Assembly (NCBI GenBank): GCA_964429195.1
Contig: CAYSBC010000003.1
Coordinates: 729 to 64,728 of the forward strand
Length of the DNA stretch: 64,000 bases
Direction of reading: 5' to 3'
From: an uncultured Eubacteriales bacterium
GTDB taxonomy: Bacteria; Bacillota; Clostridia; Peptostreptococcales; JAAYPU01
Under the pieces are notes generated by a model, which worked only from the letters and a program-made list of their open reading frames with translations, was not told the origin of the DNA and made no database searches. Below, one piece after another: positions 940-50,455 of this stretch (its first letter is position 1; the number at the start of each line of letters is the position of its first letter). Made by a program: the position numbers and the translations under genes.

Positions 940-3900
940 TTAAGAATTAATTTTTTGTACTTTTATCAGAGTATCAATACCATTTAAATTGTAGCTTTCA
1001 ACATCTTGTAACATTGACCTTTCAATAGATAAAGCTAAAGTTTCTTTCTGAACATAATCCTTATGAAGCCGAAGTGCATCTTCTATCCTTTCATCATCTG
1101 AATAATAGACTATCTTGATGTTATCCAATACTTCAAGATCGCTATTTTTTCGAATCTGCTGGACTTTAGAAACAAATTCTCTCGCTAATCCTTCATAAGC
1201 AAGCTCTTCCGTTACATGAGTATCTAAAACTGTAAATATATTATTCTCCATGGCCACTGTAAAACCATCTTTTGCCACGATGTTAATATTGAGCATTTCT
1301 TTGGTGATTTCGGTACTTTCGCCTTCAAGCTCCAGAAGAACCTTTCCATGCTGCTCCAGCTCATCTATTATATCTTCCGCTTTAACAGAATTCAAAGCTT
1401 TACCTAAAGATTTGACCTTACTGCCTAACAGTGGCCCTGCTGCTTTAAAGTCTGGCTTTAAGCTATAGTTCATATACTGAGCTAATTCTTTTTCGAATAT
1501 AACCTCCTTAATATTCAATTCTTCGATAATTAAATCTGTCATATCACCAATTAAGTCTTCGAATTTACCATCTACAATAATTTTATTCAAAGGTTGTCTT
1601 ACTTTTATCTTTTCTTGTTCTCTGGCAGCACGGCCCAAGCCTACTAATACTCTGACCAAATCCATTCTCTCCTCGATAAAATCATCTACCAGTTCTTCAT
1701 TAAATTCCGGATAGTAATCTAAATGAACTGACTCTTTCCCCGTTAGTTTTTGATAGATTTCTTCTGATAAGAAAGGTGCAAAAGGTGCCATCAATTTAGA
1801 GACCCCTACTAATACTTCGTAGGTTGTATTGTATACTGCCTTTTTATCATCTGTCATCTTTGTATCCCAAAATCTTCTTCTAGCTCTCCTGATATACCAA
1901 TTAGATAGATCTTCATCAACAAAGCTCTGAATATAGCGCACAGCTTTCATGAGATCATACCTTTCCATCTCTTCTGTCACTGCTTGGATGAGTTTGTTAT
2001 ATTTAGACAGCATCCATCGATCCAGTTCAGGTCTCTCATCATATGGAATGTAGAAATCTTCAATATTGATTTCATCCGTGTTTGAATACATCACAAAGAA
2101 ATTGTACACATTTTTTAGGGTTCCAAAGAATTTATTTTGATTCTCCTTAAGACCCTCTTCATCAAATTTTGTTGGTGTCCATACCGGTGAAACATGCAGT
2201 AAATACCATCGTGTAGCATCAGCACCGTATTGATCAAATAAGCTAAAAGGATCAACTGTGTTGCCTCTTGACTTAGACATTTTCTTACCTTCTTTGTCCA
2301 ATATCAAGTCATTGACCAATACGTTTTTATAGGGTGCTCTTCCTTTGACAAATGTCGAAATAGCCATCAAGGAATAGAACCATCCTCTGGTTTGATCAAT
2401 TCCTTCGCATATAAAATCTGCAGGAAACAATTCGTCAAAGTTTTCACTGTTTTCAAATGGATAATGGTGTTGTGCAAAAGGCATGGAACCACTATCAAAC
2501 CAACAATCAATGACCTCGGATACTCTAGACATGGTTTGTCCGCACTTTTCACAGGTTAGATGAACATCATCCACATGGGGTCTGTGTAATTCTATGCTTT
2601 CATCAATATTTTCGATCGCTTTTTCTGCAAGCTCTTTCCTAGAACCAATGGATTCTAAATGACCGCATTCGCAACGCCAAATATTGAGCGGTGTCCCCCA
2701 GTACCTGTTTCTAGAAATTGCCCAATCATTGACATTTTCAAGCCAGTTTCCAAACCTCTTTTCACCTATATAATCCGGGAACCAATTAACACTGTTATTG
2801 TTTTCAATCAGTTGATCCCGAAGTTTTGTCATTTCAATATACCAGCTAGGCTTAGCATAATATAAAAGAGGAGTTGTGCATCTCCAGCAATGAGGATAAT
2901 TGTGTTCAAGCTTTTCTTTCGAGAATACTTTGTTTTCGCTATGAAGCCATTTAATAATATCGATATCACAATCCATGACAAATCTACCGGCCCATGGAGT
3001 TTCTGTGTATTTTCCATCTTCCCCCACCGGATTAGGCACCGGTAAATTATATTTTTTCCCTGTTTGGTAATCATCCTCGCCAAAAGCAGGGGCCGTATGA
3101 ACAATGCCTGTTCCATCCTCTGTTGTCACATAATCATTGCATGTGACATAAAATGCTTTTTTATCTACTGGAACAAAAGGCATTAATTGCTCATATTCGC
3201 TGTATTCTAAAGCTTTGCCTTTCATTCTCTCTATGATTTCATAGTCATCGCCTAAGATTTTGTTCGCTAAGGCCTCGGCTAAATAGTACACTTTTCCTTC
3301 AGCTCTTGCTTTAATGTAATCCAAGTCCGGGTGAACTGTTAAAGATACGTTGGATGCTAAGGTCCAAGGAGTTGTCGTCCATGCCAAAAAATAGGCATCC
3401 TCATCCTTCTTCTTAAAGGCGACTACAACTGTATTGCTCTTAATTTCCTTGTAACCAAGGGCAACTTCATGGGATGCAAGTCCTGTTCCGCAACGAGGGC
3501 AATAAGGAAGTATTTTATGCCCCTCATAAATAAGTCCTTCATCAAAAAACCTCTTTAATATCCACCATACGGATTCGATATAATCATTATCCAGTGTAAT
3601 ATAAGGATTATCCATGTCAATGAGATAGCCCATCCTTCTGGTCATCTCTCGCCATTGTTTTTCATAAATAAATACGGATTCTCTGCATTTTTTATTGAAT
3701 TCAGCCAGTCCATAAATTTCTATATCTTGCTTGCTGGATAATGCTAACTGCTTCTCCACCTCTATTTCAACAGGTAATCCATGGGTATCCCAACCTGCTT
3801 TTCTCTTGACTTGGTAACCTCTCATCGTTTTGTATCTGCAAACACTGTCTTTAAGTGTTCTTGCTATAACGTGGTGTATTCCCGGCTTCCCATTTGCAGT

Positions 3901-10586: not shown

Positions 10587-11777
10587 TTAGTACGGCATAA
10601 TAGCTTTCTCCATAGCTTCCTTTATTTGTGCTACGTCTTTATCCCCTCTACCTGATAAATTAACTACTATAATTTTATCTTTAGGTAAAGTTTCCGCTAA
10701 TTTCATTGCATGAGCTACAGCGTGAGAGCTTTCTATGGCAGGAATAATGCCTTCGACCCGACACAATTCATGAAATGCCTGTAATGCTTCATCGTCCGTT
10801 GCTGTAACATACTGTCCACGGCCACTATCTTTATAAAAGCTATGCTCCGGACCTACTCCGGGGTAGTCTAATCCGGCTGCAATAGAATATACCGGAAGCG
10901 GTTCCCCATCTTCATCTTGAAGGTTATAACATTTAAAACCATGGAGGATGCCTACTTTTCCTTTTGTGATAGCTGCTGCATGATCCGGAGTGTCCAGACC
11001 TTTCCCTGCCGGTTCTACTCCAATCAATTGGACATCTTTATCCCCATAAAATGGATGGAAGATTCCTATGGCATTGCTTCCGCCTCCAACACATGCGACG
11101 ATATAATCCGGTAACCTGCCTTCTTGCTCCATGATTTGCTCTTTTGTCTCTGCACCAATAATGCTTTGGAATTCCCGGACCATAACGGGGTAAGGGTGAG
11201 GACCTACAGCCGAACCTATTAAATAAAAAGTGTTTTCATAGTTTTCCGAAAAATCGATCAGGGCAGCGTCAACCGCATCTTTTAATGTTCTGGTTCCAGT
11301 TTTAACAGGTACAACCCTTGCCCCTAAAAGCTCCATTCTGAATACATTAAGCTCCTGCCTTTTTGTATCAATTTCACCCATATAGATGATGCACTCCATA
11401 CCAAACATAGCACATACTGTAGCTGTCGCTACACCGTGCTGTCCAGCCCCTGTTTCAGCAATGATTCTCTTTTTTCCCATTCTTTTAGCGAGCAAAACTT
11501 GTCCCAATGCATTGTTGATTTTATGCGCTCCTGTATGATTTAAATCCTCTCTTTTTAAATAAATCTTTGCTCCGCCTATTTTTTCTGTTAATCTCTCAGC
11601 GAAATAAAGTGGATTAGGCCGCCCGGTATATTGCTTATGATAGTACATGAGCTCTTCTTGAAATTTAGGATCTCCTACAAATTTGTAAAACTGTTCAGCC
11701 ATTTCCTCTAATGCCACTTGCAGTTTTTCAGGAACAAAAGATCCTCCAAACTCCCCAAAAAATTCTTTTCTTTCCAT
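10587..11777 (-). CDS. trpB: tryptophan synthase beta chain (stand-alone; no trpA or other trp genes in the window)
   Basis: 396 aa. PLP-lysine region [11 protein letters not shown], plus GGGSNAIG and SGRGDKD motifs. AGGAGGAAA RBS. Confidence 0.95.
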
Positions 11778-11823: not shown

Positions 11824-12090
11824 AAATAAAAATCCCCTACATGCTTAATACATGTAGAGGACGATATCTTCGCGGTGCCACCTCAATTGGTTTTAAAACC
11901 CTCTCATCAGATACAGGATAAATAACCGATATCTTAACTCTATAACGGGAGTTCCCGGGTTGCCTACTGTGATTCAGCTTCCACTCGTGAGCCCATTCAG
12001 TCTATACTTTGATACCACGTTTTCACCACCAGTGGCTCTCTTCAATCTCCGTAATAACCTACTATCCTCACTCATCGCTTTACTTATTGG
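11824..12090 (-). promoter_or_regulatory. T-box riboswitch leader, probable Trp (UGG) specifier, controlling trpB
   Basis: Read on the minus strand: GCGATGAG K-turn region; AGAGAG bulge (plus 12045-12050); GGTGGTGAAAA distal loop; specifier context GAA-TGG-G (TGG = plus 11993-11995); stem III GGTTTTAAAACC; T-box sequence GGTGGCACCGCG (plus 11871-11882). The terminator is CCTCTACATG/CATGTAGGGG followed by ATTTTTATTT. Confidence 0.9.
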
Positions 12091-30760: not shown

Positions 30761-30788
30761 ATTATATCTTTATCATGGCATATGTCAA
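30761..30788 (-). promoter_or_regulatory. sigma-A type promoter for the DUF134-mrp pair
   Basis: Minus strand TTGACA (30783-30788, overlapping the selU stop codon), 16 nt, TATAAT (30761-30766). Confidence 0.7.
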
Positions 30789-31891
30789 TAACTCTCTTTG
30801 TTTTTAAGATAATCTAATACCTCATCTTTATTCCCTTGGTATATAATTCTGTCCTTAACCTTTTGCATCTGAAATTGATACATGGGATCGTAGTATTCCA
30901 CTAATAGTTTCTCTATCCATCGCTTATGCAAATCGTAGCTTCCGGTATGAACTTGTTCCCAATAGGCTTGTTCAAATAAATGACTTATCTCCTTAAAAAA
31001 TTCTCCGCCTAGTCTCTTTTTTATATTCTGGAAGCCATTTCGTATATGATTGGCCCATTCAATCAAAGCTTGTTCTTCTTCAAACAGCTCTTTATAAGAG
31101 CCCTGGGATTCGACAACATACTCCTTTAATGTGATAGCTACCCTTTCTTCTATAGACGCTTCGAGGATGACTAAATCGCTGCTTTTAAAATGAAAAAATA
31201 AGGGCCTGGGCAAAAAACATTTTCCTACGTGTGCACCTTCATCCTCAAGAACCATGTCTTTATAGCCCTTATGCTTATGCTTTATCATGGCATAAGCCAA
31301 ATTGTTTTCAAAGTTTATTTGAGTGGCTTGGGGTGTCACCTGACTCCCAAATGCAGAGCCCCTATGATTCGCAATTCCCTCAAGATCAATAGCATTTTCT
31401 AATTTTTTTAATAAAATAGTCTTTCCCGAGCCCGTACAACCTCCTAACATGATGATATTGCTTTGAAGCTGAGATGGTTCAAGCTCCATCCTTAAATATT
31501 GGCGGAAAGCCTTATAACCTCCTTCAATCCTCATCCTATTTTTTCCTGTTATCTCTTTAATCCATTGTTGCGTGATTTGAGAGCGAAGTCCTCCTCTAAA
31601 ACAATAAACAAGGCTATCAGGATACCTTTTTAGATGATCCGTCCAAGCATTAACCCGAGCCTCTTTTATCTCTCCGCATACCAATTGGTGACCTAATCTT
31701 ACTGCTTCTTCACTTCCCTTTTTCTTATAACATATTCCAACTAAATGTCTTTCTTCATCATTCATCAGCGGCAAATTAACCGTATTTTTAAAAGTCCCTT
31801 TATTAAATTCAAGGGGTGCTCTTACGTCAATTAGAGGCATTTCGTCTATCACAATCTTTTCAAAATCATTCCAAGTTAATTTTTCCATCAT
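30785..31891 (-). CDS. selU: tRNA 2-selenouridine synthase
   Basis: N-terminal rhodanese domain with active-site CFRGGLRSQ, followed by P-loop GGCTGSGKT. 368 aa. Overlaps the selD stop by 4 nt. Confidence 0.9.
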
Positions 31892-32919
31892 ACCACCTTG
31901 ATGAATTTACCAAAGGCCTCGCAAGTTTCCCCAATAGGTTTCAGGGACAGTCCGGCAGCAGCAGTTATCTCTAAAAATTCCGGAATACCTTCTTTTTTAA
32001 CAATCACAAGAAGCCCACCGGAGGTTTGAGCATCACATAAAATATCTCTTTGCTCTTCTGTTAATCCCTCAATAGTGTCTCCATAACTCAAGAAGTTATT
32101 GCGGGTTCCACCAGGTACGCAGTCCATCGCAAGGTATTTCTTGGTATGGGGCAGCAAAGGAATCTTATCAAATTCAACAATAGCTGAGATGCCACTGGCT
32201 TTACAGACCTCCCCCAAATGTCCCAATAATCCAAATCCTGTAATGTCCGTCAATCCGACAACACTGTCTAGGCCCGAAATCTCAGCACCAATTTTATTTA
32301 AAGTTGTCATCGCCTCAATGGCAGGCTCTATATGACCAGGCTCAATCTTTTTCCTTTTTTGAGCAGTCGTCAAGATACCAATACCTAGTGGCTTCGTAAT
32401 AAAAATAGCACACCCGGGAATGGCTTGATTGTTTTGTTTTAATCGGTTATTATCTACAATGCCTGTCACAGCCAGTCCAAAGATAGGCTCCGGAGAATCA
32501 ATAGAATGTCCTCCTGCAAGCGGGATACCTGCTTCATCGCAGATTGAACGCCCACCTTCAATAACCCTTCCCGCAATCTCCGGATCAAGCAGATTAATGG
32601 GCCATCCTAGTATAGATATAGCCATAAGCGGTGTGCCCCCCATGGCATAAATATCACTTATGGCATTGGTAGCCGCAATTTTGCCAAAGGTAAAGGGATC
32701 GTCAACTATCGGCATGAAAAAATCTGTTGTGCTTAAAATAGAGGTTCCATTTCCCAAATCATAAGCCGCCGCATCATCTTTATTGTCATACCCCACTAAA
32801 AGGTTAGGGTAATTCTTTTTATCTCCCGCCTTATTTAATATAAGATCCAATGTAGATGGGGCAATTTTGCATCCACAACCTGCTCCATGACTATATTCTG
32901 TTAATTTTATCTCTTGCAT
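31888..32919 (-). CDS. selD: selenide, water dikinase (selenophosphate synthetase), Cys-type
   Basis: N-terminal [10 protein letters not shown] motif; the first Cys is TGT, not TGA. AIR-synthase-like fold motifs. Start set at MQEIKLTEY (32919), which has AGAGGAAA upstream. Confidence 0.93.
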
Positions 32920-32990
32920 AAAAATATTTCCTCTCTTTTTCAGTATCAAGTCTGCTCATTAATTTTAACATATTTTTTTTAAAAATAACA

Positions 32991-36670: not shown

Positions 36671-38584
36671 CTATAAACCCATCTTTTCTCTTTTACTCAA
36701 AATATGAGCTTCAATATCTTTGGCAACTTGAACGGGATCATCGCCTAGCGCTACCTTCCCGCCTGTTAGCCCTTCCACATCTTCTGTAAGAAGTTTTACA
36801 AGATTAGGAGCCCCTGTAATAAATGGTGTCGGTGACAAATGGGTATAGGCCCCATAAGCTACAGTAAACAACCCATCAATGGTTGCCTTTTGTTCCATCC
36901 ATTCCGGTGCAGTGACAGCAATCGGCAGATCGGATATATCTGCATCGAGATGATCTGCCAAAGCAGTAACAAGCATAGATATTCTTCCCGTATCTGTGCA
37001 GGTCCCAAAGCTTAGAACAGGAGGAATGCCTAAGGCTTTACATACTCCTTTTAGTCCGTCCCCTGCTAACTCTATGGCATCTAAATTACACATTCCTGCC
37101 ACTTCCAGTCCATGATTACCACAACCACCTGCTACAACTAATATATCCTTTTTGATGAACTCTTTCGTAAGATTCACCGTGTTCCAATCTTGTGGACCAT
37201 TTCTCAAAGTAGAACAGCTTGCCAAAGCCACGATGCCTTTTATCTGTCCCTTTGCTAGGACATCCACCAAGACATTCAAGTCATTACCAATTGCTTTTAA
37301 AACAGCCTCCGTAGAAAAACCTGCAATGGCTTTTGTCTTATGATGGGGAACCATAGGTTTAATAACCCCGTGTCTCTTTTGGAAGTTATCAATAGCAATA
37401 TTAATGCAACTTTCTGCCATTTCATCCACTTTAGAAGGATAATAAGGCATCTCGTGCTCTGTTCCCGGCACACCGATAATCGTACTTACACTCACAAGAG
37501 CAAATTGATATTTTTCAGCATATTGATCCATAGCAGGAGGGGAACAATTTTCTTCGATAACCAAGGCATCCACAGTACCTGTTGCCAAGAAAGGTTCAAT
37601 CGCCAACCAATTTCCCATGAGCCCCACAAAAACATCGTCTACTTCAAATCTTTGTAACAACTCTTGTCCGGTCTCTATGGAACCGACAATGCGAATACCC
37701 TTTGCTCCTGCTTTTTTTGCCCGCTCTTGATAATCTTGTTTTCTAGCTTTTTGTAAGGCTGCTACGCCAACCCAGGGTTGATGTCCATTAAAAACAATAT
37801 TGACGTAATCAGGATCCATAATTCCCATATCCACATCCACTTCATGGGGCATAGGTGTTCCAAAGAGGATATCCTGAGTCATTTCTAAACCGATTTGTGC
37901 AGTGTAAATGGTAGATATACCTAACCGCAGTGCTTTCTTAGCCAAGGAAATATAATCACCATCAACATTTGTCAAGCAGCTGGCAATACAATTCTCCACC
38001 TCGTGTTGCACTCCTGAAGGGTACAGATTCAATTCTTGCCATAAGGATTTTCTCTTTTTGGGGGCAAAAGCCTCCATCATCATGCTTTTCTGGTCAGGGT
38101 TAATCTTCATCTCTTTATCTAAGAGTTCCGCCAATTGTATTGCTAATTGATTCACATCCTGTTTTGTATCGATGCCTACTTTTTCACACATCCATTTTAA
38201 CTTATCGGTATCCGTAATTTTAAAAGGTGTTTTCCCTTCTCCCGTAGCCTTGAGTGTTCTAAAAGCTTCAAAAGCATGATGTCCATAGGTTGCTGCTCCC
38301 ATAATGTTCCTCATGAGCAAACTCCTCATGGCCATGGCATCAGCATCTATACCGCAGACACCCTTGTCTGCACCTGCCTTGTCACTTATTCTGCATGGTC
38401 CATGGGTGCAAAGTTGGCAGCTGAGTCCTTGAAGGCAAAATTTACAGCGAATTTTCTCTTGGGCCTCCCATCTTGAAAATACGCTTGAAAGACCATCCTC
38501 CTTTATTCTTTTCAGCATTTCTTCTACGGAATCATGGTAGCTTACACGACCTTCTGTTCTCTCTAAAATAGTATCTGTCATCAT
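36671..38584 (-). CDS. CooS-family (anaerobic Ni-CODH scaffold) protein with a non-canonical active-site motif
   Basis: N-terminal Cys pattern CKFCLQGLSCQLCTHGPCRI and later SFGTCTDTGRI are CooS-like. Where I expect G-x-C-C-T-G-N-E, the sequence reads G-S-I-E-T-G-Q-E. Start set at MMTDTIL (38584), which has AAGGAGA upstream. Confidence 0.75.
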   Translation of the reverse strand: MMTDTILERTEGRVSYHDSVEEMLKRIKEDGLSSVFSRWEAQEKIRCKFCLQGLSCQLCTHGPCRISDKAGADKGVCGIDADAMAMRSLLMRNIMGAATYGHHAFEAFRTLKATGEGKTPFKITDTDKLKWMCEKVGIDTKQDVNQLAIQLAELLDKEMKINPDQKSMMMEAFAPKKRKSLWQELNLYPSGVQHEVENCIASCLTNVDGDYISLAKKALRLGISTIYTAQIGLEMTQDILFGTPMPHEVDVDMGIMDPDYVNIVFNGHQPWVGVAALQKARKQDYQERAKKAGAKGIRIVGSIETGQELLQRFEVDDVFVGLMGNWLAIEPFLATGTVDALVIEENCSPPAMDQYAEKYQFALVSVSTIIGVPGTEHEMPYYPSKVDEMAESCINIAIDNFQKRHGVIKPMVPHHKTKAIAGFSTEAVLKAIGNDLNVLVDVLAKGQIKGIVALASCSTLRNGPQDWNTVNLTKEFIKKDILVVAGGCGNHGLEVAGMCNLDAIELAGDGLKGVCKALGIPPVLSFGTCTDTGRISMLVTALADHLDADISDLPIAVTAPEWMEQKATIDGLFTVAYGAYTHLSPTPFITGAPNLVKLLTEDVEGLTGGKVALGDDPVQVAKDIEAHILSKREKMGL

Positions 38585-38671
38585 CCTATTCTCCTTTTTC
38601 AATGGTTTCCAAAAATCCACATTTTGAATAGTATGACCAGAATCATCCATTTCAATGCTAAGAATTGTACC

Positions 38672-40144
38672 CTAGGTACCACAAAATGTCCGGTAGGGCA
38701 CTGATGATGATGGGGGAGTAGCGCAGTATTCAGCTTCCACATTCCTGTGATCATAAGGCCTTGAAAGAACCTCTATCAGCTTTTCGAATAAATGATAATC
38801 TCCCTTTTCCGCCCCTCCTAGTGCTTCCTCTACCAGGTGATTTCGAGGTATCACAGCAGGATTAGAATGCATCATCAACTCTATTGATGCATCTCTTGAT
38901 TCCTTTTGTCGTCTTAACCTTTCTTGCCATCGTTTATGCCATTCTGTGAATTCTACAGCCTTCAATAAGTCCATATCCTCCGGCCTATTTTGTGTCAATA
39001 CTCTGAAAGTATTGGTATAGTCAGCCTCATGCTGATCCATGATGGCTAGAAGATCTTTAGCAAGTAACAGATCCTCATCCTCCTCGTTAAACAAGCCTAA
39101 CTTTGCTCTCATCCCTGTCATCCAGTGATGTTGATAGAGGCCATGAAAACCTTGAACAGCCTCCTCGGCTATTGGGATTGCTTCTTCTTGCTTGTCGTGT
39201 AATAAAGGTAATAAGGTTTCAGCAAATCGAGCTAAATTCCACGCTGCAATCCATGGCTGATTGCTATAAGCATAGCGCCCATGTCTATCAATAGAGCTAA
39301 ATACTGTCCCAGGTTTGTAAGTATCCATAAAAGCGCAAGGTCCATAGTCAATGGTCTCGCCACTGATGGTCATGTTATCCGTATTCATGACACCATGAAT
39401 GAAACCAACCAACTGCCATTTGGCAATCAAGCTTGCCTGGCGCTTTATTACTTCCTTTAAAAATGAAAGATATTGTTTCTCTCCATCATTACAATGAGGA
39501 AAATGCCTTCTTATTGTATAATCGACTAATATCTTAAGCTCATTTGCATCTCCCCATTGTGCAGCATATTCAAAGGTTCCCACCCTGATATGGCTTGCAG
39601 CTATGCGGGTTAAAATGGCTCCTTGTAAAATATTCTCACGAAAAATAGTTTCCCCCGTTGTCACTACAGCCAGACTCCTTGTAGTGGGTATACCGAGAGC
39701 ATACATGGCTTCACTCATGATATATTCCCGCAACATGGGCCCAAGGGCAGCTCGTCCATCTCCACCTCTGGAATAAGGCGTTCTTCCCGATCCCTTAAGC
39801 TGGACATCCAATCTTTCACCTGAGGGTGTTATCTGTTCTCCAAGCAATACTGCCCTTCCATCACCTAGCATTGTAAAATGTCCAAATTGATGTCCTGCAT
39901 AGGCTTGAGCAAGGGGTAAGGCACCTTCGGGAACTTGATTGCCTGCAAATACGGATAAAAATTCTTCCTTATTGAGAGCCTGTACATTTAATCCCAGTGC
40001 CTTTGCTAAAGGATCATTCAAGATGATCAGTCCCGGTGAAGAAACGGGAATGGGGTCCATTAAGGAAAAGAAGGATTGGGGTAAAGAAGCATAACTGTTA
40101 TCAAAATTCCATCCTGCCTTTAAACTTGATTTTTTTTCTTCCAT
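38672..40144 (-). CDS. selO: SelO/YdiU-family protein adenylyltransferase (AMPylase pseudokinase)
   Basis: 490 aa. YAGHQFG, LGDGRA and HGVMNTDN motifs typical of UPF0061/SelO. C-terminal ...RTFCGT has Cys where eukaryotic SelO has Sec. Confidence 0.88.
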
Positions 40145-41852: not shown

Positions 41853-42085
41853 AGTAAACATTCAACAATTTTATCGTGTTTAAAGTGATGCTTCTTCAAA
41901 AACTCCTCAAGAACATTTCTTTGTTCAAGACTTCCTTTCCAAGCCAACCCACATCCTGCTGAAATAGTAGGCGGTAAAGGAATGATGCGTCCTTTTAAGC
42001 CTTCCATTTTAGCAGTCTCTTCAAAGCCCATAGCTTCTGTCGTGGCTTGGAAGGTAATAAGCAAATACCTTTCTTTTTGTCTCAT
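41849..42085 (-). CDS. DUF3343 (putative Se/S carrier-like) protein
   Basis: 78 aa from MRQKERYLLITF. Conserved ISAGCGLAW Cys motif. Its ATG overlaps the stop of the upstream desulfurase gene (ATGA). Confidence 0.75.
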   Translation of the reverse strand: MRQKERYLLITFQATTEAMGFEETAKMEGLKGRIIPLPPTISAGCGLAWKGSLEQRNVLEEFLKKHHFKHDKIVECLL

Positions 42086-43224
42086 CGATTTTCTCCTTCC
42101 AATACCCATAGAGCATGTATAGCCTCATCAATGTCATCTACCCTATTAAAATGGGAAAAACTAAAACGCACCATGCCCTGTTCTAGAGTCCCAAATGCCC
42201 TGTGAACTTCCGGAGCGCAATGAGCTCCCCCACGGGTTGCTATTCCAAAACGCTGAAATAATTCATCCGCTAAAAAACCGGAATGTACATCTCTTAGATT
42301 AAGTGTAACGATAGGTGTTCTCACATCAGCATCATAATCCCCATACAAGATGATGCCGGGTAAATCTTTCACCCCATCCAAAAATTTTTTCGCAAGAAAG
42401 CTTGCTTCTTGAAATATCTTGTCTTGTCCAACTTCATTGAGATAATCGCAGGCTGCAGAGAGTCCGGCAATACCATGAGTATTAAGTGTACCTGCCTCAA
42501 GTGCCTCCGGTAAAAACCTTGGCATCTCATGGGAAAAACTATCTCCACCGGTTCCGCCCACCTTAAGGGGATTTGGCATCACTCCATCAGCTAAACATAA
42601 GATACCTGTGCCTTGAGGCCCCAGCATACTTTTGTGCCCTGAACAACAAAGTGCTGAAATGCCACTTTCCTCTAAATGAATAGGTAGAAGCCCTGCTGTC
42701 TGAGAAGCATCTAGAATAAGTAACAAATTATGCTTTTTACATAGCTTGCCGACTCCCTCTAAATCTTGGACATTGCCTATGACATTGGAGGCATGATTCA
42801 TGATCACAGCCTTCGTTTCCGGGCATATTTCTGCCTCAATAGCACATGTCTGAACATACCCTTTGCTATTGGCAGGAACAGTTGTCACCTTAACACCCTG
42901 CTTTTCCATAAGATAAAGAGGTCTTAATACACTATTATGTTCCAAAGATGTGGTTATACAATGGTCCCCTTCCTGAAGAAGACCCTGAATAGCAATATTT
43001 AAACTTTCTGTTGCATTGAAAGTGAAGACAACACGAGAACAATCATCCATGCGAAAAAAATCAGCAATTTTTTTCCTTGTTTGGTATACCATGCGACTTG
43101 CCTCAAGAGATACACCATGGGCCCCACGCCCACTATTGCCGGATCCCTTTAGGGCATGGCATACCGCTTCTATCACAGCCTCCGGCTTATGAAAAGAGGT
43201 TGCTGCATGATCTAAGTAAATCAT
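42082..43224 (-). CDS. class-V aminotransferase: cysteine desulfurase / selenocysteine lyase family (NifS-like)
   Basis: 380 aa. MIYLDHAATS start, PLP-lysine context SGHKSMLGPQG, C-terminal GGAHCAP active-site Cys loop. Confidence 0.85.
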   Translation of the reverse strand: MIYLDHAATSFHKPEAVIEAVCHALKGSGNSGRGAHGVSLEASRMVYQTRKKIADFFRMDDCSRVVFTFNATESLNIAIQGLLQEGDHCITTSLEHNSVLRPLYLMEKQGVKVTTVPANSKGYVQTCAIEAEICPETKAVIMNHASNVIGNVQDLEGVGKLCKKHNLLLILDASQTAGLLPIHLEESGISALCCSGHKSMLGPQGTGILCLADGVMPNPLKVGGTGGDSFSHEMPRFLPEALEAGTLNTHGIAGLSAACDYLNEVGQDKIFQEASFLAKKFLDGVKDLPGIILYGDYDADVRTPIVTLNLRDVHSGFLADELFQRFGIATRGGAHCAPEVHRAFGTLEQGMVRFSFSHFNRVDDIDEAIHALWVLEGENR

Positions 43225-45309: not shown

Positions 45310-45406
45310 TGGCGGGAGCATGTGGGAATCGAACCCACCCAAGGGGTCCTTAACCCCTCGAACCGATTTTGAAGACCGGCGATAACACCAGCTACCATCT
45401 ACTCCC
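45310..45406 (-). tRNA. selC: tRNA-Sec (anticodon UCA)
   Basis: Minus-strand read: GGGAGTAGATGGTAGCTGGTGTTATCGCCGGTCTTCAAAATCGGTTCGAGGGGTTAAGGACCCCTTGGGTGGGTTCGATTCCCACATGCTCCCGCCA. Anticodon loop is CT-TCA-AA. Long variable arm (GAGGGGTT..GACCCCTT), GGTTCGATTCC T-arm, encoded CCA. About 97 nt. Sits 33 nt downstream of selB. Confidence 0.93.
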
Positions 45407-45439: not shown

Positions 45440-47338
45440 CTAATTTGTAAATAAAACTCTCCAATCTTCTTTCTTTATTGTTATCTTTTGTTCATCGAAA
45501 TATTCTAACAGGGGTAAGGCATATTTTCTTGAAGTTTCTAATAAATCGCGAAATTGCCCCAGTGTAATCGATTCATTTTCTCGAATAAATGACTTGATCT
45601 CCGATAAGGCCTTTTCATAAAAAAAACGATGTAAATAAATATTGGAATCGATTTTTATTAAGATTCCTTCCTTCACCAAATCTTGTATGATTTGCATCAC
45701 CTCTTGGGGATCTTGAAAAGACTTGGCTACATCTGTGATAAAGGGAACCATCCATCCCCCTTGATAATATGTCTCTTCTACCTGCCCTTTTATTTTCTTC
45801 TGTTCTTCTGTATAGCTTTTTTTAAAAGCAGACAAAGCAACCCTTTCATCTTGTATGATAATCTTCCCTGCTGTGTGAAAATATTTCAGTATGGAGTCCG
45901 CCCATTTATTCTTGCCTTTAAATAGTCTGTTGCGACATTCTTCTAAACTCATTCCTAGTCTAAGAGAATTTTCTTCATGATACTCTTTTAATATTGTTTC
46001 AAGATTGGTTTCTAATGCACGGAGAATGGTATGATGAAAGGCTAAATCTTTTGTTATCATTATGACTTTCTTTTCCTTAACCAACTGCTCTATACACTTC
46101 TCTGCTTGTGTGCCTTCTTTCCCCAATTGTTTCACAATAGAGCTTAAAGGTTTAAAGGTAAGACTATATTTCTTTATAAAGATTTCTAGGATGTCTTTTT
46201 CCGAACCGGTTTCTAACAATTTCAGTTCTTCTATAGCTACTTTATCATAGGGTTTATGTTTTTTAGGATTGGCATCCAGTACAATGCCACCCCCTATGGT
46301 TTCCACCGGAGAATAAAATCTTATCACAAAATAATCACCTTTTTTAGCGGCAATCTTTTCCTCTAATCGTACTTGGGCATAGCAACTTTCACCGGCTTTT
46401 ATAAGCTCTTTATTGAGTATCATGACACGACATAATACTTGGCTTGTACCGTGATAAAGAGAGACTCTTGTATTGTTTTTGAGCTCCCTATCGGTATTTT
46501 TTAAAAGATCTAATCTTACATCGAGCATGCTTGTCTCTTCCATTGAATCTTTTTCCGCTAAAACATAGCCTCTTTGAATCTCATCTTTTTTAATATTTGC
46601 TAAATTAAGAGCTACCCTCTGACCCGCAAAGGACCCTTGTGCCTTTTCACCATAGACCTGTATATTTCTTATTTTAGCAGATTGACCGGTTGGATAAACC
46701 ATCACTTCATCGCCACTTTTTAAACTTCCTTCTGTCTGTGTACCTGTAACAACTGTACCGAATCCGTCTATAGTAAATAGCCTATCTATAGGGAGTCGAA
46801 AAGGTGTATTGTTGCTTTTCACCCTAATATCCTGTGTCATCTTAATAATTGCTTCTTTTAATGTTTCGATTCCTTCGCCATGAACAGAGGATACAGGAAT
46901 AAGAGGTGCATTTTCAAGAAAAGTACCCCTGATCTCCTCTTTGACTTCTTCCTCCACCATTTGCAACCATTCATCATCAACAATATCTTTTTTGGTCAAC
47001 ACAACAAGGCCATGTTGAATATGGAGTATAGATAATATATCAAGGTGTTCTCTAGTTTGGGGCATAACGCCTTCATTTGCCGCTATAACCATGAGAACTA
47101 TGTCTATTCCACCGATACCTGCCAGCATATTCTTTATAAATTTTTCATGACCCGGAACATCAATAATACCAGCCTTTTCGCCATTAGGGAGGTCAAAGAA
47201 TGTAAATCCTAATTCGATTGTAATGCCGCGTTTCATCTCTTCCTTAAGATGATCTGTTTCCCTGCCCGTTAACGCCTTGATTAAGGATGTTTTACCATGA
47301 TCAATATGTCCTGCTGTTCCAATGATAATACTCTTCAT
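45440..47338 (-). CDS. selB: selenocysteine-specific translation elongation factor
   Basis: G-domain AGHIDHGKTSL, DVPGHEKF, TKKD. Long C-terminal winged-helix extension. Start set at MKSIIIGTAGH (47338), 10 nt after the selA stop. Confidence 0.93.
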   Translation of the reverse strand: MKSIIIGTAGHIDHGKTSLIKALTGRETDHLKEEMKRGITIELGFTFFDLPNGEKAGIIDVPGHEKFIKNMLAGIGGIDIVLMVIAANEGVMPQTREHLDILSILHIQHGLVVLTKKDIVDDEWLQMVEEEVKEEIRGTFLENAPLIPVSSVHGEGIETLKEAIIKMTQDIRVKSNNTPFRLPIDRLFTIDGFGTVVTGTQTEGSLKSGDEVMVYPTGQSAKIRNIQVYGEKAQGSFAGQRVALNLANIKKDEIQRGYVLAEKDSMEETSMLDVRLDLLKNTDRELKNNTRVSLYHGTSQVLCRVMILNKELIKAGESCYAQVRLEEKIAAKKGDYFVIRFYSPVETIGGGIVLDANPKKHKPYDKVAIEELKLLETGSEKDILEIFIKKYSLTFKPLSSIVKQLGKEGTQAEKCIEQLVKEKKVIMITKDLAFHHTILRALETNLETILKEYHEENSLRLGMSLEECRNRLFKGKNKWADSILKYFHTAGKIIIQDERVALSAFKKSYTEEQKKIKGQVEETYYQGGWMVPFITDVAKSFQDPQEVMQIIQDLVKEGILIKIDSNIYLHRFFYEKALSEIKSFIRENESITLGQFRDLLETSRKYALPLLEYFDEQKITIKKEDWRVLFTN

Positions 47339-47348
47339 GACTTTATCC

Positions 47349-48764
47349 CTACACTTTTTGTATACTATCAATCGCCCGGATAAGATAAGGTAATGCCTCT
47401 TCTTCAATAGTCCTGCAATCTAAGAGGATAGCACCCCTATGAATACGTGCAATAATGGGAATAGATTGATTTCTTAAACTTCCTTCAAAGTCATTAACAC
47501 TTTTTAACAGAGGCTTTATTTGTATCAAAAAGCTGGGCAATTCATGTAATGGCAAGGAACCACCACCTATTTGAGAAAAGCCTTCTACTAAAGACACCTC
47601 CATATTTTCGAAATGCTGAAGTGCACTCCATATTTTAAATGCTTTTTCCCTTATTTCTTTCTTATCCATGGTCATCATCTTGAGTGTCGGAATTTTTTCA
47701 AGTGGAGCTCCCGAAAAATATATTTGCAGAGTTGCCTCAAGTGCCGCTAAAGTTAATTTATCAACTCTAAAGGCTCTGGCGAGTGGATTTTCTTTCATCT
47801 TTTCTATCCAATCTTTTCTCCCAATGATGATACCCGCTTGAGGTCCTCCCAATAATTTATCTCCGCTAAAACAAATGATATCCGCACCCGTTTCCACACT
47901 TTCTTTAATGGTCGGTTCATCAACAATGCCATATTCTTTAAGGTCCATTAAGCATCCGCTACCCAAATCATGAATGACAGGAATGTTGTAGGTCTTACCC
48001 ATGGCAGCTAATTCCTTTAGACCCACCTCCTCAGTAAAGCCTAAAATCCTGTAATTGCTTGTATGTATTTTTAGGAAAGCTCCTGTATTTTCAGCATCTA
48101 TTACTTTCATATAATCACTTAGATGTGTTTTATTGGTAGTCCCCACTTCTTTTAATCTGGTTCCACTTTGACTCATAATCTCAGGAATTCTGAATGACCC
48201 TCCAATTTCTACAAGCTCACCTCGGGATACGATAACTTCTTTATCCTTTGCCAGTGTATTCAGTATGAGCATGATGGCTGCTGCATTGTTATTGACGACA
48301 AATGCTGCTTCCGTTCCGGTAAGTTTTGTTAGCATTTTTTCTATAGGATCATAGCGTGAGCCTCTTTTCCCTTGATCTATATCATATTCGAGATTGGAAT
48401 AATGACCTGCTATATCAAAAATATGCTCTTTTATTTCATCAGCTAATAGCGCACGGCCAAGATTGGTATGCAATATAATCCCAGTTGCGTTGATAACCTT
48501 TCTTAAGCCCCATTGCTTTCTTTCTTCTATTTCAAAAACGATTTCATCTAATAAATCCTGCCGATTGAAGATGTTCTCCGAAACCATGCCCTCTGATATA
48601 GCGGATAACATCTTGTTTCGCACTTTTTCTATTTGGTCACGGATAATATCAGTCATTCTCTTGCGTGATATTTGATCATGATAGAATTTGATTTTCTCAT
48701 CCATGAGTATTTCATCAACCTTGGGTAATTGTCTCAACCATTCTTTTTTATCCATTTTTATCAC
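47349..48764 (-). CDS. selA: L-seryl-tRNA(Sec) selenium transferase
   Basis: 471 aa. PLP-lysine motif FSGDKLLGGPQAG and SRGELVEIGGSFRIPE. Confidence 0.93.
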   Translation of the reverse strand: MIKMDKKEWLRQLPKVDEILMDEKIKFYHDQISRKRMTDIIRDQIEKVRNKMLSAISEGMVSENIFNRQDLLDEIVFEIEERKQWGLRKVINATGIILHTNLGRALLADEIKEHIFDIAGHYSNLEYDIDQGKRGSRYDPIEKMLTKLTGTEAAFVVNNNAAAIMLILNTLAKDKEVIVSRGELVEIGGSFRIPEIMSQSGTRLKEVGTTNKTHLSDYMKVIDAENTGAFLKIHTSNYRILGFTEEVGLKELAAMGKTYNIPVIHDLGSGCLMDLKEYGIVDEPTIKESVETGADIICFSGDKLLGGPQAGIIIGRKDWIEKMKENPLARAFRVDKLTLAALEATLQIYFSGAPLEKIPTLKMMTMDKKEIREKAFKIWSALQHFENMEVSLVEGFSQIGGGSLPLHELPSFLIQIKPLLKSVNDFEGSLRNQSIPIIARIHRGAILLDCRTIEEEALPYLIRAIDSIQKV

Positions 48765-48790
48765 TCCATTTGTGAACTCGCATCCATCTT

Positions 48791-48822
48791 AATAAAAACC
48801 CTCTCTTTTGGTCCAAGAGAGG
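48791..48822 (-). terminator. rho-independent terminator between the HesB-like genes and selA
   Basis: Minus strand CCTCTCTT-GGACCAA-AAGAGAGG followed by GTTTTTATT. It ends only about 27 nt before the selA start codon. Confidence 0.75.
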
Positions 48823-48854
48823 ATTTCAAACTTTAACAAGAATCTAGATAGGTA

Positions 48855-49133
48855 TCATACTGTGACTGTAAAGCCTTTATTAAACCAACCTTTGGAGTAA
48901 TCAATGTTCAAATTTCCAAAATGATCTAACAAATCCTTTTCAACTAGAATCTCTATATCGTCAATTTTTTCAACAACGTCTTTTTCCTCATCCTTTGTCT
49001 TGTCCAAGACAATCCCAAAACTGGGACCACCTCACCCAAAAGATTGGAATACAATTCTGACGAAGCTCTTTTCATTATTCTCAAAGTACTTATTCAGTTC
49101 TTCTTTTGCTTTTATTGATAGACTTATACCCAT
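48855..49133 (-). CDS. HesB/IscA-like selenoprotein, copy 1 (92 codons, in-frame TGA at codon 34 = 49032-49034)
   Basis: Not in the ORF track. Minus-strand translation: MGISLSIKAKEELNKYFENNEKSFVRIVFQSFG-U-GGPSFGIVLDKTKDEEKDVVEKIDDIEILVEKDLLDHFGNLNIDYSKGWFNKGFTVTV. AAAGGAGGA RBS 8 nt upstream. Protein-level conservation with copy 2 continues past the TGA. Confidence 0.85.
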
Positions 49134-49150
49134 TATACACCATCCTCCTT

Positions 49151-49447
49151 TCAAGAATTTTGAGCACGAATACCAAATGTAACTAAAAAACCTTTATTGA
49201 ACCAACGTAAATAATCAATTTTCAAATTCCCAAAACGATTTTTTAAGTCTTTTTCAACGATTATCTCTATATCGTCAATTTTTTCAACGTAATCCTTTTC
49301 TTCATTCTTTGTCTTAACCAAGACAACCCCAAAGATGGGACCGATTCATCCAAAAGAGAGTAATACAATTCTGGCCATGTTCGTTTCATCATTCTTAAAT
49401 CGCTTATATAATTCTTCTCGCGCTTTTTTTGTTAGGATTATACTCAT
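49151..49447 (-). CDS. HesB/IscA-like selenoprotein, copy 2 (98 codons, in-frame TGA at codon 34 = 49346-49348)
   Basis: Not in the ORF track. Translation: MSIILTKKAREELYKRFKNDETNMARIVLLSFG-U-IGPIFGVVLVKTKNEEKDYVEKIDDIEIIVEKDLKNRFGNLKIDYLRWFNKGFLVTFGIRAQNS. GAGGGAGGGTGG RBS. Same TGA position as copy 1. Confidence 0.85.
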
Positions 49448-49561
49448 TATACACCACCCTCCCTCAATCAACACCCTATTACTCATATATTTCCCAAACT
49501 TTTTCAAAGTTAAACAAGAATATCTAATTCCCGTTATAATTGAGCGAACTCTATCGAATCT

Positions 49562-50455
49562 CTAGATAGAAAATAAAATCATATACACAGGAATTGTAAT
49601 CAAGGAGAAGACAGTGGACATGAATGTTCCTTTTGCGGCAAGTTCTTTGTTACCATCGTAGGTAATGCAAAGCATAGAAACATTGCTGGCTACAGGCATA
49701 CTTGTTAGAATCACGCAAATACCTAAAATCATAGGATCTTTTACAAAGAACTGCAGGACAAGCCATACCATAAAAGGCAAGAGTATGAGCTTAGTAAATG
49801 ACATAATATAAAGCATTCTGTCTTTTAAAACACTTGTTATGCTGACTGCCCCTAACGTGGAACCTAATGTTATCATGGCCAAAGGTGAAGTGATGCTTCC
49901 TATGGTGTCTAGAAATTTTGTGATTACCTCCGGAACAGGAAGTGCAAAATTAAAGATAAGAATAGCCAATACCGCTGCTATAATACCCGGATTCAATAAT
50001 TTCTTGAGTTGAAGCTTGGCTTCTTTTTGGAGAACCGAAACACCATAGGAAAATACACTTAAATTAAAAATAATCATAAATAAGGATGTGTAAAATGAGC
50101 CTAAACCGCCATACAAAGCTGTCATGATAGGAAAACCCATGAACCCCAAGTTAGGATAGGTCAACATGAGTTTATAAGTATCATCCGTCTTGAAAATTTT
50201 CTGAAAAACCGCTGCAAAAAAAGGTGTAAAGATAAAAATACCGGCGGCTAATGCGAGCACATAAAATGCAGTCATACGATTCTCCGTATCCTGCCCTATG
50301 GCAGAAGCAATAATCGATGCGGGTAAGGTTATCTTGAGTAGAAAACCGGAAAAATATTTATCAGAAACCGTATCCAGTAGGCCCAGTTTATTGCATATAA
50401 ATCCTAGAGCAATAAAGCCAAACAACAGGCATAATTGCATCACAATAGCGTTCAT
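49562..50455 (-). CDS. AEC (auxin efflux carrier) family transporter
   Basis: 297 aa, about 10 TM. AEC-like N-terminus. Confidence 0.75.
   Translation of the reverse strand: MNAIVMQLCLLFGFIALGFICNKLGLLDTVSDKYFSGFLLKITLPASIIASAIGQDTENRMTAFYVLALAAGIFIFTPFFAAVFQKIFKTDDTYKLMLTYPNLGFMGFPIMTALYGGLGSFYTSLFMIIFNLSVFSYGVSVLQKEAKLQLKKLLNPGIIAAVLAILIFNFALPVPEVITKFLDTIGSITSPLAMITLGSTLGAVSITSVLKDRMLYIMSFTKLILLPFMVWLVLQFFVKDPMILGICVILTSMPVASNVSMLCITYDGNKELAAKGTFMSTVFSLITIPVYMILFSI

Follow-up and report, generated by a model that had tools for sequence, protein, structure and literature searches.

The 64,000-nucleotide (nt) stretch of contig CAYSBC010000003.1, from an uncultured Eubacteriales bacterium, that we analyzed here (the window, to whose positions all coordinates refer) carries on its minus strand, upstream of selA, two similar reading frames, copies A and B, each of them interrupted by an in-frame TGA at codon 34 (Table 1). 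Judging from features of the sequence, and with a probability of about 0.87, copies A and B are a tandem duplicate pair of intact genes for selenoproteins of 98 and 92 amino acids (aa) that belong to the HesB-like branch of the IscA/HesB superfamily. We infer that the TGA is read through as selenocysteine (Sec) in both copies, because the stretch that follows it shows a low ratio of nonsynonymous to synonymous divergence (dN/dS), because homologs have a TGA or a cysteine (Cys) codon at the same column, because that column aligns with a ligand Cys of IscA, because a hairpin lies downstream of the UGA, and because the window encodes the Sec machinery and otherwise uses TGA as a stop codon.

Two interrupted reading frames upstream of selA

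A sequence-only reading of this DNA had described the two minus-strand frames, with their TGA at codon 34, their 64 (copy A) and 58 (copy B) further open codons and their ribosome-binding-site strings, and had noted the plus-strand open reading frames (ORFs) at 49000-49182 and 49335-49565; all of its coordinates and counts are correct, and both plus-strand ORFs are listed. Copy A translates as MSIILTKKAREELYKRFKNDETNMARIVLLSFG-TGA-IGPIFGVVLVKTKNEEKDYVEKIDDIEIIVEKDLKNRFGNLKIDYLRWFNKGFLVTFGIRAQNS-TGA, the stretch after the in-frame TGA opening with IGPIFGVVLVKTK and closing with FGIRAQNS*, and copy B translates as MGISLSIKAKEELNKYFENNEKSFVRIVFQSFG-TGA-GGPSFGIVLDKTKDEEKDVVEKIDDIEILVEKDLLDHFGNLNIDYSKGWFNKGFTVTV-TGA, the corresponding stretch opening with GGPSFGIVLDKTK and closing with GFTVTV*. 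Both copies start with ATG, each with a Shine-Dalgarno-like site upstream, and a gap of 17 nt lies between them, so that they are likely to be part of one transcript. A sigma-70 scan upstream of copy A gave no promoter above shuffle expectation, and Rfam at its gathering thresholds gave no match in the locus, the only matches elsewhere in the window being a T-box and the tRNA-Sec. As a tandem repeat, the pair has a period of 314 nt and is 79% identical over 251 nt; the two proteins are 67% identical, and neither contains a single Cys residue. Short direct repeats are found around the pair, at 48824-48843 and 49502-49521 (20 nt, 90% identity) and at 48829-48851 and 49547-49569 (23 nt, 74% identity), in each case with the first member downstream of copy B and the second upstream of copy A; these may record unequal crossing-over or an insertion, or be a coincidence of AT-rich sequence.

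Table 1. Positions of the two HesB-like genes, their putative recoding elements and the genes of the Sec pathway
Feature	Position	Strand	Remarks
Copy A, HesB-like selenoprotein gene (predicted)	49151..49447	(-)	98 codons + TGA stop; Sec codon 34, motif SFG-U-IGP
Copy B, HesB-like selenoprotein gene (predicted)	48855..49133	(-)	92 codons + TGA stop; Sec codon 34, motif SFG-U-GGP
In-frame TGA, predicted Sec codon 34 of copy A	49346..49348	(-)	Aligns with TGA, W or Cys of homologs
In-frame TGA, predicted Sec codon 34 of copy B	49032..49034	(-)	Aligns with TGA, W or Cys of homologs
Shine-Dalgarno-like GAGGGAGGG, copy A	49457..49465	(-)	Upstream of ATG; sequence reading
Shine-Dalgarno-like AAAGGAGGA, copy B	49143..49151	(-)	Overlaps copy A stop codon; sequence reading
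SECIS-like hairpin, copy A	49309..49326	(-)	UUGUCUU-GGUU-AAGACAA; nt 23-40 from U of UGA; folding
SECIS-like hairpin, copy B	48995..49012	(-)	UUGUCUU-GGAC-AAGACAA; nt 23-40 from U of UGA; folding
Terminator-like hairpin	48789..48827	(-)	Between copy B stop and selA start; 13-bp stem AAAUCCUCUCUUG/CAAAAGAGAGGGUUU, one A:G mismatch
selA, L-seryl-tRNA(Sec) selenium transferase	47349..48755	(-)	PF03841, 520 bits; protein MFA5527230.1 exact
selB, Sec-specific elongation factor	45440..47407	(-)	GTP_EFTU + SelB winged-helix domains; start codon uncertain
selC, tRNA-Sec, anticodon TCA	45310..45406	(-)	ARAGORN; Rfam RF01852, 71.4 bits
selD, selenophosphate synthetase, Cys form GAGCGCK	31888..32949	(-)	NF002098, 514 bits vs cut-off 299

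By exact-sequence look-up, the GenBank record flanks the locus with MFA5527227.1 (AEC transporter) and MFA5527230.1 (SelA), and has between them two hypothetical proteins, MFA5527228.1 (56 aa, P0004) and MFA5527229.1 (50 aa, P0001 cluster), which are C-terminal fragments of copies A and B. An ORF list with a threshold of 30 aa likewise contains minus-strand fragments at 49151..49321 (56 aa) and 48855..49007 (50 aa). The earlier description of the genes as un-called thus holds for the full-length genes, which are missing from the record, but not for their C-terminal parts: the locus is mis-called, with two truncated hypothetical proteins where two predicted selenoprotein genes stand, and not wholly un-called.

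The sequence past the TGA has the properties of coding sequence. Of all stop-to-stop intervals in the window, only 3.3% are at least 58 codons long, and past the genuine TGA stops of long window ORFs the frame remains open for only 3-28 codons; the open frames that follow the TGA of copies A and B are therefore not a matter of chance. Between the two copies, the post-TGA stretches have a dN of 0.175 and a dS of 1.03 (Nei-Gojobori), that is, a dN/dS of 0.17, and their differences are distributed as 10/9/21 over codon positions 1/2/3, which argues that the stretch is evolving as protein-coding sequence. Comparison of the two sequences thus shows purifying selection on the post-TGA sequence of both copies, and agrees with the earlier proposal that it is translated, since the ratio is not close to 1.

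Relationship to HesB-like selenoproteins and to IscA

HesB-like selenoproteins have been present in prokaryotic selenoproteome surveys for about two decades (PMC1242214, PMC1794560, PMC1088965) and are an accepted selenoprotein family with the motif UxGP (PMC13188914, Table 1). The member from Methanococcus maripaludis was identified as a selenoprotein by 75Se labeling and mutagenesis, and even work on this organism has not assigned a function to the family (PMC11097638). The family, modeled by TIGR01911 and NF038090, had thus rightly been referred to as already described. Copies A and B share with it a length of about 95 aa, the IscA/HesB fold, an in-frame TGA in the motif G-U-x-G-P (U-IGP in copy A, U-GGP in copy B) at the first HesB/IscA ligand-Cys column, a hairpin in the coding sequence past the UGA, and a place among anaerobic Firmicutes with selABCD. 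They differ from it in being Cys-free and tandemly duplicated, in standing beside selA, and in scoring under the curated cut-offs.

For scoring with hidden Markov models, U was replaced by C in both translations. The top NCBIfam matches of both copies are NF038090 (IscA_HesB_Se; 44.6 bits for copy A and 65.5 for copy B, curated cut-off 85) and TIGR01911 (HesB_rel_seleno; 37.9 and 55.7 bits, curated cut-off 66.35), with the generic IscA, ErpA and SufA models next; Pfam PF01521 (Fe-S_biosyn, gathering score 26.3) gives 22.3 bits for copy A and 34.7 for copy B. Relatives with 34-51% identity to copy B fall on either side of the curated cut-offs, with 88.6 bits for L015 on NF038090 and 77.5, 71.2 and 69.7 bits for L019, L022 and L012 on TIGR01911. 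For this reason, we count copies A and B, on the strength of their sequences, as divergent members of the HesB-like selenoprotein family and not as something else.

A profile search with P0002 and the exact window fragments against 1.84 billion representative proteins (E <= 1e-3) gave 294 relatives. The best matches are either proteins of about 95-100 aa that show tryptophan (W) at the Sec position (G-[FYIVM]-G-W-G-G-P) or C-terminal fragments of 50-61 aa; copies A and B are themselves represented among these fragments, by P0004 and P0001. In the 242 full-length relatives gathered, the Sec column holds W in 189 and C in 26, and W at this column is TGA in the DNA of all eight distinct W-type loci that were read (L001, L006, L009, L012, L015, L019, L020 and L022). 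Homologs with Cys or Sec at the aligned column thus exist, as the sequence-only reading had anticipated. In a word-indexed protein search, a query with C at position 34 gave 2 matches and a query with W gave 144 further ones, all W-type wherever the motif could be located. The scan of genome contigs used an alignment with U changed to C (FGC as TGY) and hence recovered Cys forms (Desulfitobacterium) alone; the scan of metagenome contigs, with the post-TGA alignment, found one locus, a Desulfitobacterium-like Cys form, and the scan of viral contigs gave no match. A DNA pattern suited to TGA forms of HesB-like genes would be, for example, TTYGGNTGANNNGGNCCN.

Most family entries (P0003-P0268) are mistranslated, either by a W in place of Sec, in most cases on contigs no longer than a few kb, or as fragments of 50-61 aa, so that counts of Sec forms based on annotation are badly biased. 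Sec forms are represented by dozens of such fragments and by more than 100 'Trp' mistranslations, so that annotated records understate the size of the HesB-like family by a wide margin, and also how far Sec forms dominate it. That most relatives are printed with W could also mean that the organism decodes TGA as Trp or Gly (genetic code 4 or 25). This is extremely improbable: TGA is the stop codon of five of the 39 long window ORFs, which argues that the organism uses neither code, the window holds a complete selA-selB-selC-selD set, the alternative residue at the column is Cys and not Trp, the column is that of a ligand Cys in IscA, and most of the W calls were made on contigs of at most a few kb, on which a gene caller could choose code 4.

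Among the Cys forms are Desulfitobacterium proteins (L002-L005) whose motif GFG-C-GGPSFG aligns with SFG-U-GGPSFG of the window, at 26-31% identity. They differ from the window copies in having Cys for Sec and a C-terminal tail rich in Cys, Gly and Ser, in adjoining IMP dehydrogenase, and in having no GG-loop hairpin at nt 23-40 from the U of the codon. The HesB-like protein of D. hafniense has been presented as a Cys-containing sequence that evolved from Sec-containing homologs (PMC1794560, Figure 4 legend).

The relation to HesB/IscA proteins that had been proposed is borne out not only by the best-scoring models but also by solved structures: the family profile, with both copies included, matches 1nwb (E = 6.6e-10), 2apn (3.4e-09), 1s98, 1r94 and 1x0g over profile positions 1-98 or 3-98. 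In four of these IscA structures (1nwb, 2apn, 1s98 and 1r94), the Sec column falls on the ligand-1 Cys, which we take to be C35 of E. coli IscA in the standard numbering; the assignment of the TGA to the position of the first ligand was therefore correct. Thus, copies A and B resemble IscA, SufA and ErpA (PF01521) in their homology over the full length and in the coincidence of the Sec column with the ligand-1 Cys column, but differ from them in having Sec at ligand 1 and in missing the C-terminal C-x-C. Most relatives keep one Cys in this region, which aligns to the first Cys of the C-x-C motif; it is present in 60 of the 73 W-type HesB-like representatives, whereas it is missing from copies A and B, and the other 13 representatives are also without Cys. 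Of the three ligands of the canonical site (the central Cys and the C-terminal C-x-C), only position 1 is occupied in the window copies, by the predicted Sec. Since both copies are Cys-free, canonical three-Cys cluster binding is, as their sequences read, impossible for them alone. The suggested kinship with A-type carriers accordingly extends to the fold, but not to a common canonical cluster site, because the C-terminal Cys ligands are missing in both copies.

The recoding hairpin and the reading of the TGA

Folding gives two hairpins past the UGA in copies A and B and in L001. The one at nt 23-40, which resembles a selenocysteine insertion sequence (SECIS), has a 7-bp stem in both window copies and the loop GGUU in copy A and GGAC in copy B. 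A (U)GG-loop hairpin at this place, with G30-G31 in the loop, is kept in 10 of 10 distinct TGA forms, with stems that vary around the fixed GG loop (GUCUU/AAGAC, GUUU/AAAC, GCUC/GAGC), and is the sole helix of the RNAalifold consensus, where CG-to-UA exchanges are seen. It is missing from all three Cys forms checked. Inspection of the two regions in which a SECIS element had been expected thus reveals, in both copies, a hairpin specific to Sec forms.

Two further candidates were set aside. A hairpin at nt 8-23 past the UGA (h1), which lies over the GP.FG codons, was not counted as a SECIS element because it is a by-product of the GGN-CCN...TTY-GGN codons and occurs equally in Cys forms. The terminal TGA of copy A was considered as a second Sec codon. 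The end of this copy (49151-49153, minus) reads AQNS-TGA-KEDGV-TAA, and the terminal TGA stands one residue past the commonest tail-Cys position (...GGSSC), as the ninth residue after the conserved V-x, where the Cys of the relatives is mostly the eighth and in a few the ninth. Only a weak fold follows it (-5.2 kcal/mol), read-through would add just KEDGV, and this TGA is most likely a plain stop.

The Sec pathway is complete inside the window, and selA, selB and the tRNA-Sec follow copy B in this order on the same strand. From what is established of bacterial Sec biology, SelB with Sec-tRNA(Sec) would bind the hairpin at nt 23-40 on the translating mRNA, and Sec would be inserted at UGA34, so that the full-length products would carry G-U-x-G-P, the motif of the family. 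The window has many selenium-related genes; selD forms a pair with mnmH/selU (tRNA 2-selenouridine synthase; 30785-32949, minus strand), so that the organism has both the Sec-decoding and the selenouridine traits.

If the TGA codons were instead real stops, the locus would code for 33-aa peptides and/or for separately initiated C-terminal ORFs of 56 and 50 aa, which is how the public record annotates it (MFA5527228.1 and MFA5527229.1), and internal TTG starts do exist. We regard this as very unlikely. The 33 codons that precede the TGA have homologous counterparts at the N-termini of IscA and of more than 100 full-length relatives, the TGA itself is a conserved feature of a single column at which other relatives have Cys, the ribosome-binding sites and ATG codons precede the N-terminal part and not the TTG codons, and the hairpin specific to Sec forms is present.

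It is also unlikely, if a little less strongly so, that the duplication left one copy, or both, as a decaying pseudogene. Copy A would be the likelier candidate, as it carries derived residues at well-conserved columns, with I for the conserved G after the Sec and V for the conserved D44, and scores lower than copy B on both family models as well as under the Pfam gathering score. However, neither copy has a frameshift or an extra stop beyond the conserved TGA, the dN/dS of 0.17 is found at a dS of about 1, and copy A retains its ribosome-binding site, its ATG, the UxGP motif, all near-invariant family residues and the best 7-bp hairpin. Moreover, the derived changes in the two copies are balanced (13 and 10), and for this reason neither looks like a decaying pseudogene; to judge by their sequences, both copies appear functional.

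Several observations nonetheless weigh against copies A and B being Sec-containing members of the HesB-like family. Neither copy reaches the curated cut-off of TIGR01911 or of NF038090, and only copy B reaches the gathering score of PF01521. The pre-TGA dN/dS between the copies is higher, at 0.61, over a small sample of only 33 codons. Taken one by one, the SECIS-like hairpins do not significantly exceed shuffled sequences in stability (z about -1.2), the helix of the consensus is only 4 bp long, the window copies pair with the 3' arm shifted by one base relative to this consensus, and the Cys-form controls for the hairpin come from one genus only. Sec incorporation at codon 34 of both copies is itself a prediction from features of this kind. 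Finally, a role as Fe-S (iron-sulfur) carriers is doubtful, because all Cys ligands are missing.

Gene neighborhoods and possible function

The pair had been placed at the head of selA-selB-selC. It is adjacent to these genes and on the same strand, but in the 99 nt that separate the stop codon of copy B from the ATG of selA lies a terminator-like hairpin, and because of it the adjacency need not mean co-transcription with selA. The hairpin is followed by UUAUU and has a folding energy of -18.2 kcal/mol (z -1.87), or -16.8 kcal/mol in a second fold; a simple terminator scan did not list it. From its sequence, it looks like an intrinsic terminator or attenuator, which would separate copies A and B from selA or attenuate expression between them.

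In about ten distinct related loci, the HesB-like gene is single-copy by tblastn. Its usual neighborhood comprises rnmV, ksgA, an ArsR-type regulator, ComFB, one or two glutaredoxins, DUF1858, a Phage_holin_4_2-like gene and HesB(Sec) itself, often followed downstream by an Mrp/ApbC-type ATPase (FeS_assembly_P + ParA), MgtE and veg; the loci that share it are L006, L009, L012-L018, L023-L025 and L029. To our knowledge, earlier work has not identified this neighborhood of glutaredoxin, DUF1858 and holin-like genes as the typical setting of the family in Clostridia. A glutaredoxin lies within one or two genes past the HesB-like gene in L001 and L019. In none of the sampled related loci is selA next to the HesB-like gene. 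The only sampled relative near a selenium-utilization gene is L022, a contig from an oil-reservoir metagenome, where the HesB-like gene (3385-3687, plus strand) is two genes downstream of a Sec-type selD (1470-2531, plus strand); this selD (...SAAG-TGA-AAKLNP...) is called as a truncated AIRS protein of 253 aa. As the sampled relatives are single-copy and none stands beside selA, the tandem duplication and the adjacency to selA are, going by these sequences, peculiar to the window locus among those sampled.

The neighborhoods of the relatives point to thiol-redox reactions or Fe-S trafficking. Since the relatives stand beside glutaredoxins, and often beside the Mrp/ApbC-type Fe-S carrier ATPase, the products of copies A and B could be IscA-fold selenoproteins, with Sec in the ligand-1 pocket, that take part in selenol-based redox or in metal/Fe-S handling together with thiol partners, a suggestion that we make with lower confidence than that of their identity. 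Because neither copy has a Cys residue, Sec34 would have to act alone, across the interface of a homodimer or of an A/B heterodimer, or with an external thiol ligand, possibly glutaredoxin or a low-molecular-weight thiol.

Another scenario, for which we see a small chance, is that the Cys-free, tail-less pair is a lineage-specific offshoot recruited to selenium metabolism. In one version, the proteins would be selenium carriers, the selenol serving in the hand-over of selenium between a nearby SclA-like lyase/desulfurase, SelD and SelA; in another, two UGA-containing ORFs placed before a terminator-like hairpin and selA-selB-selC would link Sec-decoding capacity to sel expression. The evidence for it is positional only, namely the adjacency in the window and the proximity of the L022 gene to a Sec-type selD.

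We favor the interpretation of copies A and B as HesB-like selenoprotein genes of the family at large, of which they are two new, divergent and mis-annotated members. As the family, its motif and the recoding mechanism are already established, current understanding is unchanged; what sets this locus apart is that the genes form a tandem pair, have lost the tail Cys and adjoin selABC. This natural pair next to selA, free of Cys and with Sec as its sole chalcogen, makes a convenient minimal system in which to ask whether Sec alone can support metal, Fe-S or selenium binding.

Other genes of the window lie farther from the pair. A class-V aminotransferase is encoded 2 kb downstream of selC (42082-43224, minus strand); it passes the model of the TIGR01977 cysteine desulfurase family (405.5 bits, cut-off 377) and reaches 373 bits with the model of the selenocysteine lyase SclA, under the cut-off of 525, and a member of its cluster bears the JGI name 'selenocysteine lyase/cysteine desulfurase'. 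The same minus-strand gene run includes genes for a SelO/YdiU protein adenylyltransferase that ends in ...TFCGT (38672-40144) and for a protein of the Prismane/CO-dehydrogenase family (36671-38650). The T-box leader of the window (11854-12084, minus strand; Rfam RF00230, 109.5 bits) precedes the gene at 10587-11777 and is unrelated to copies A and B.

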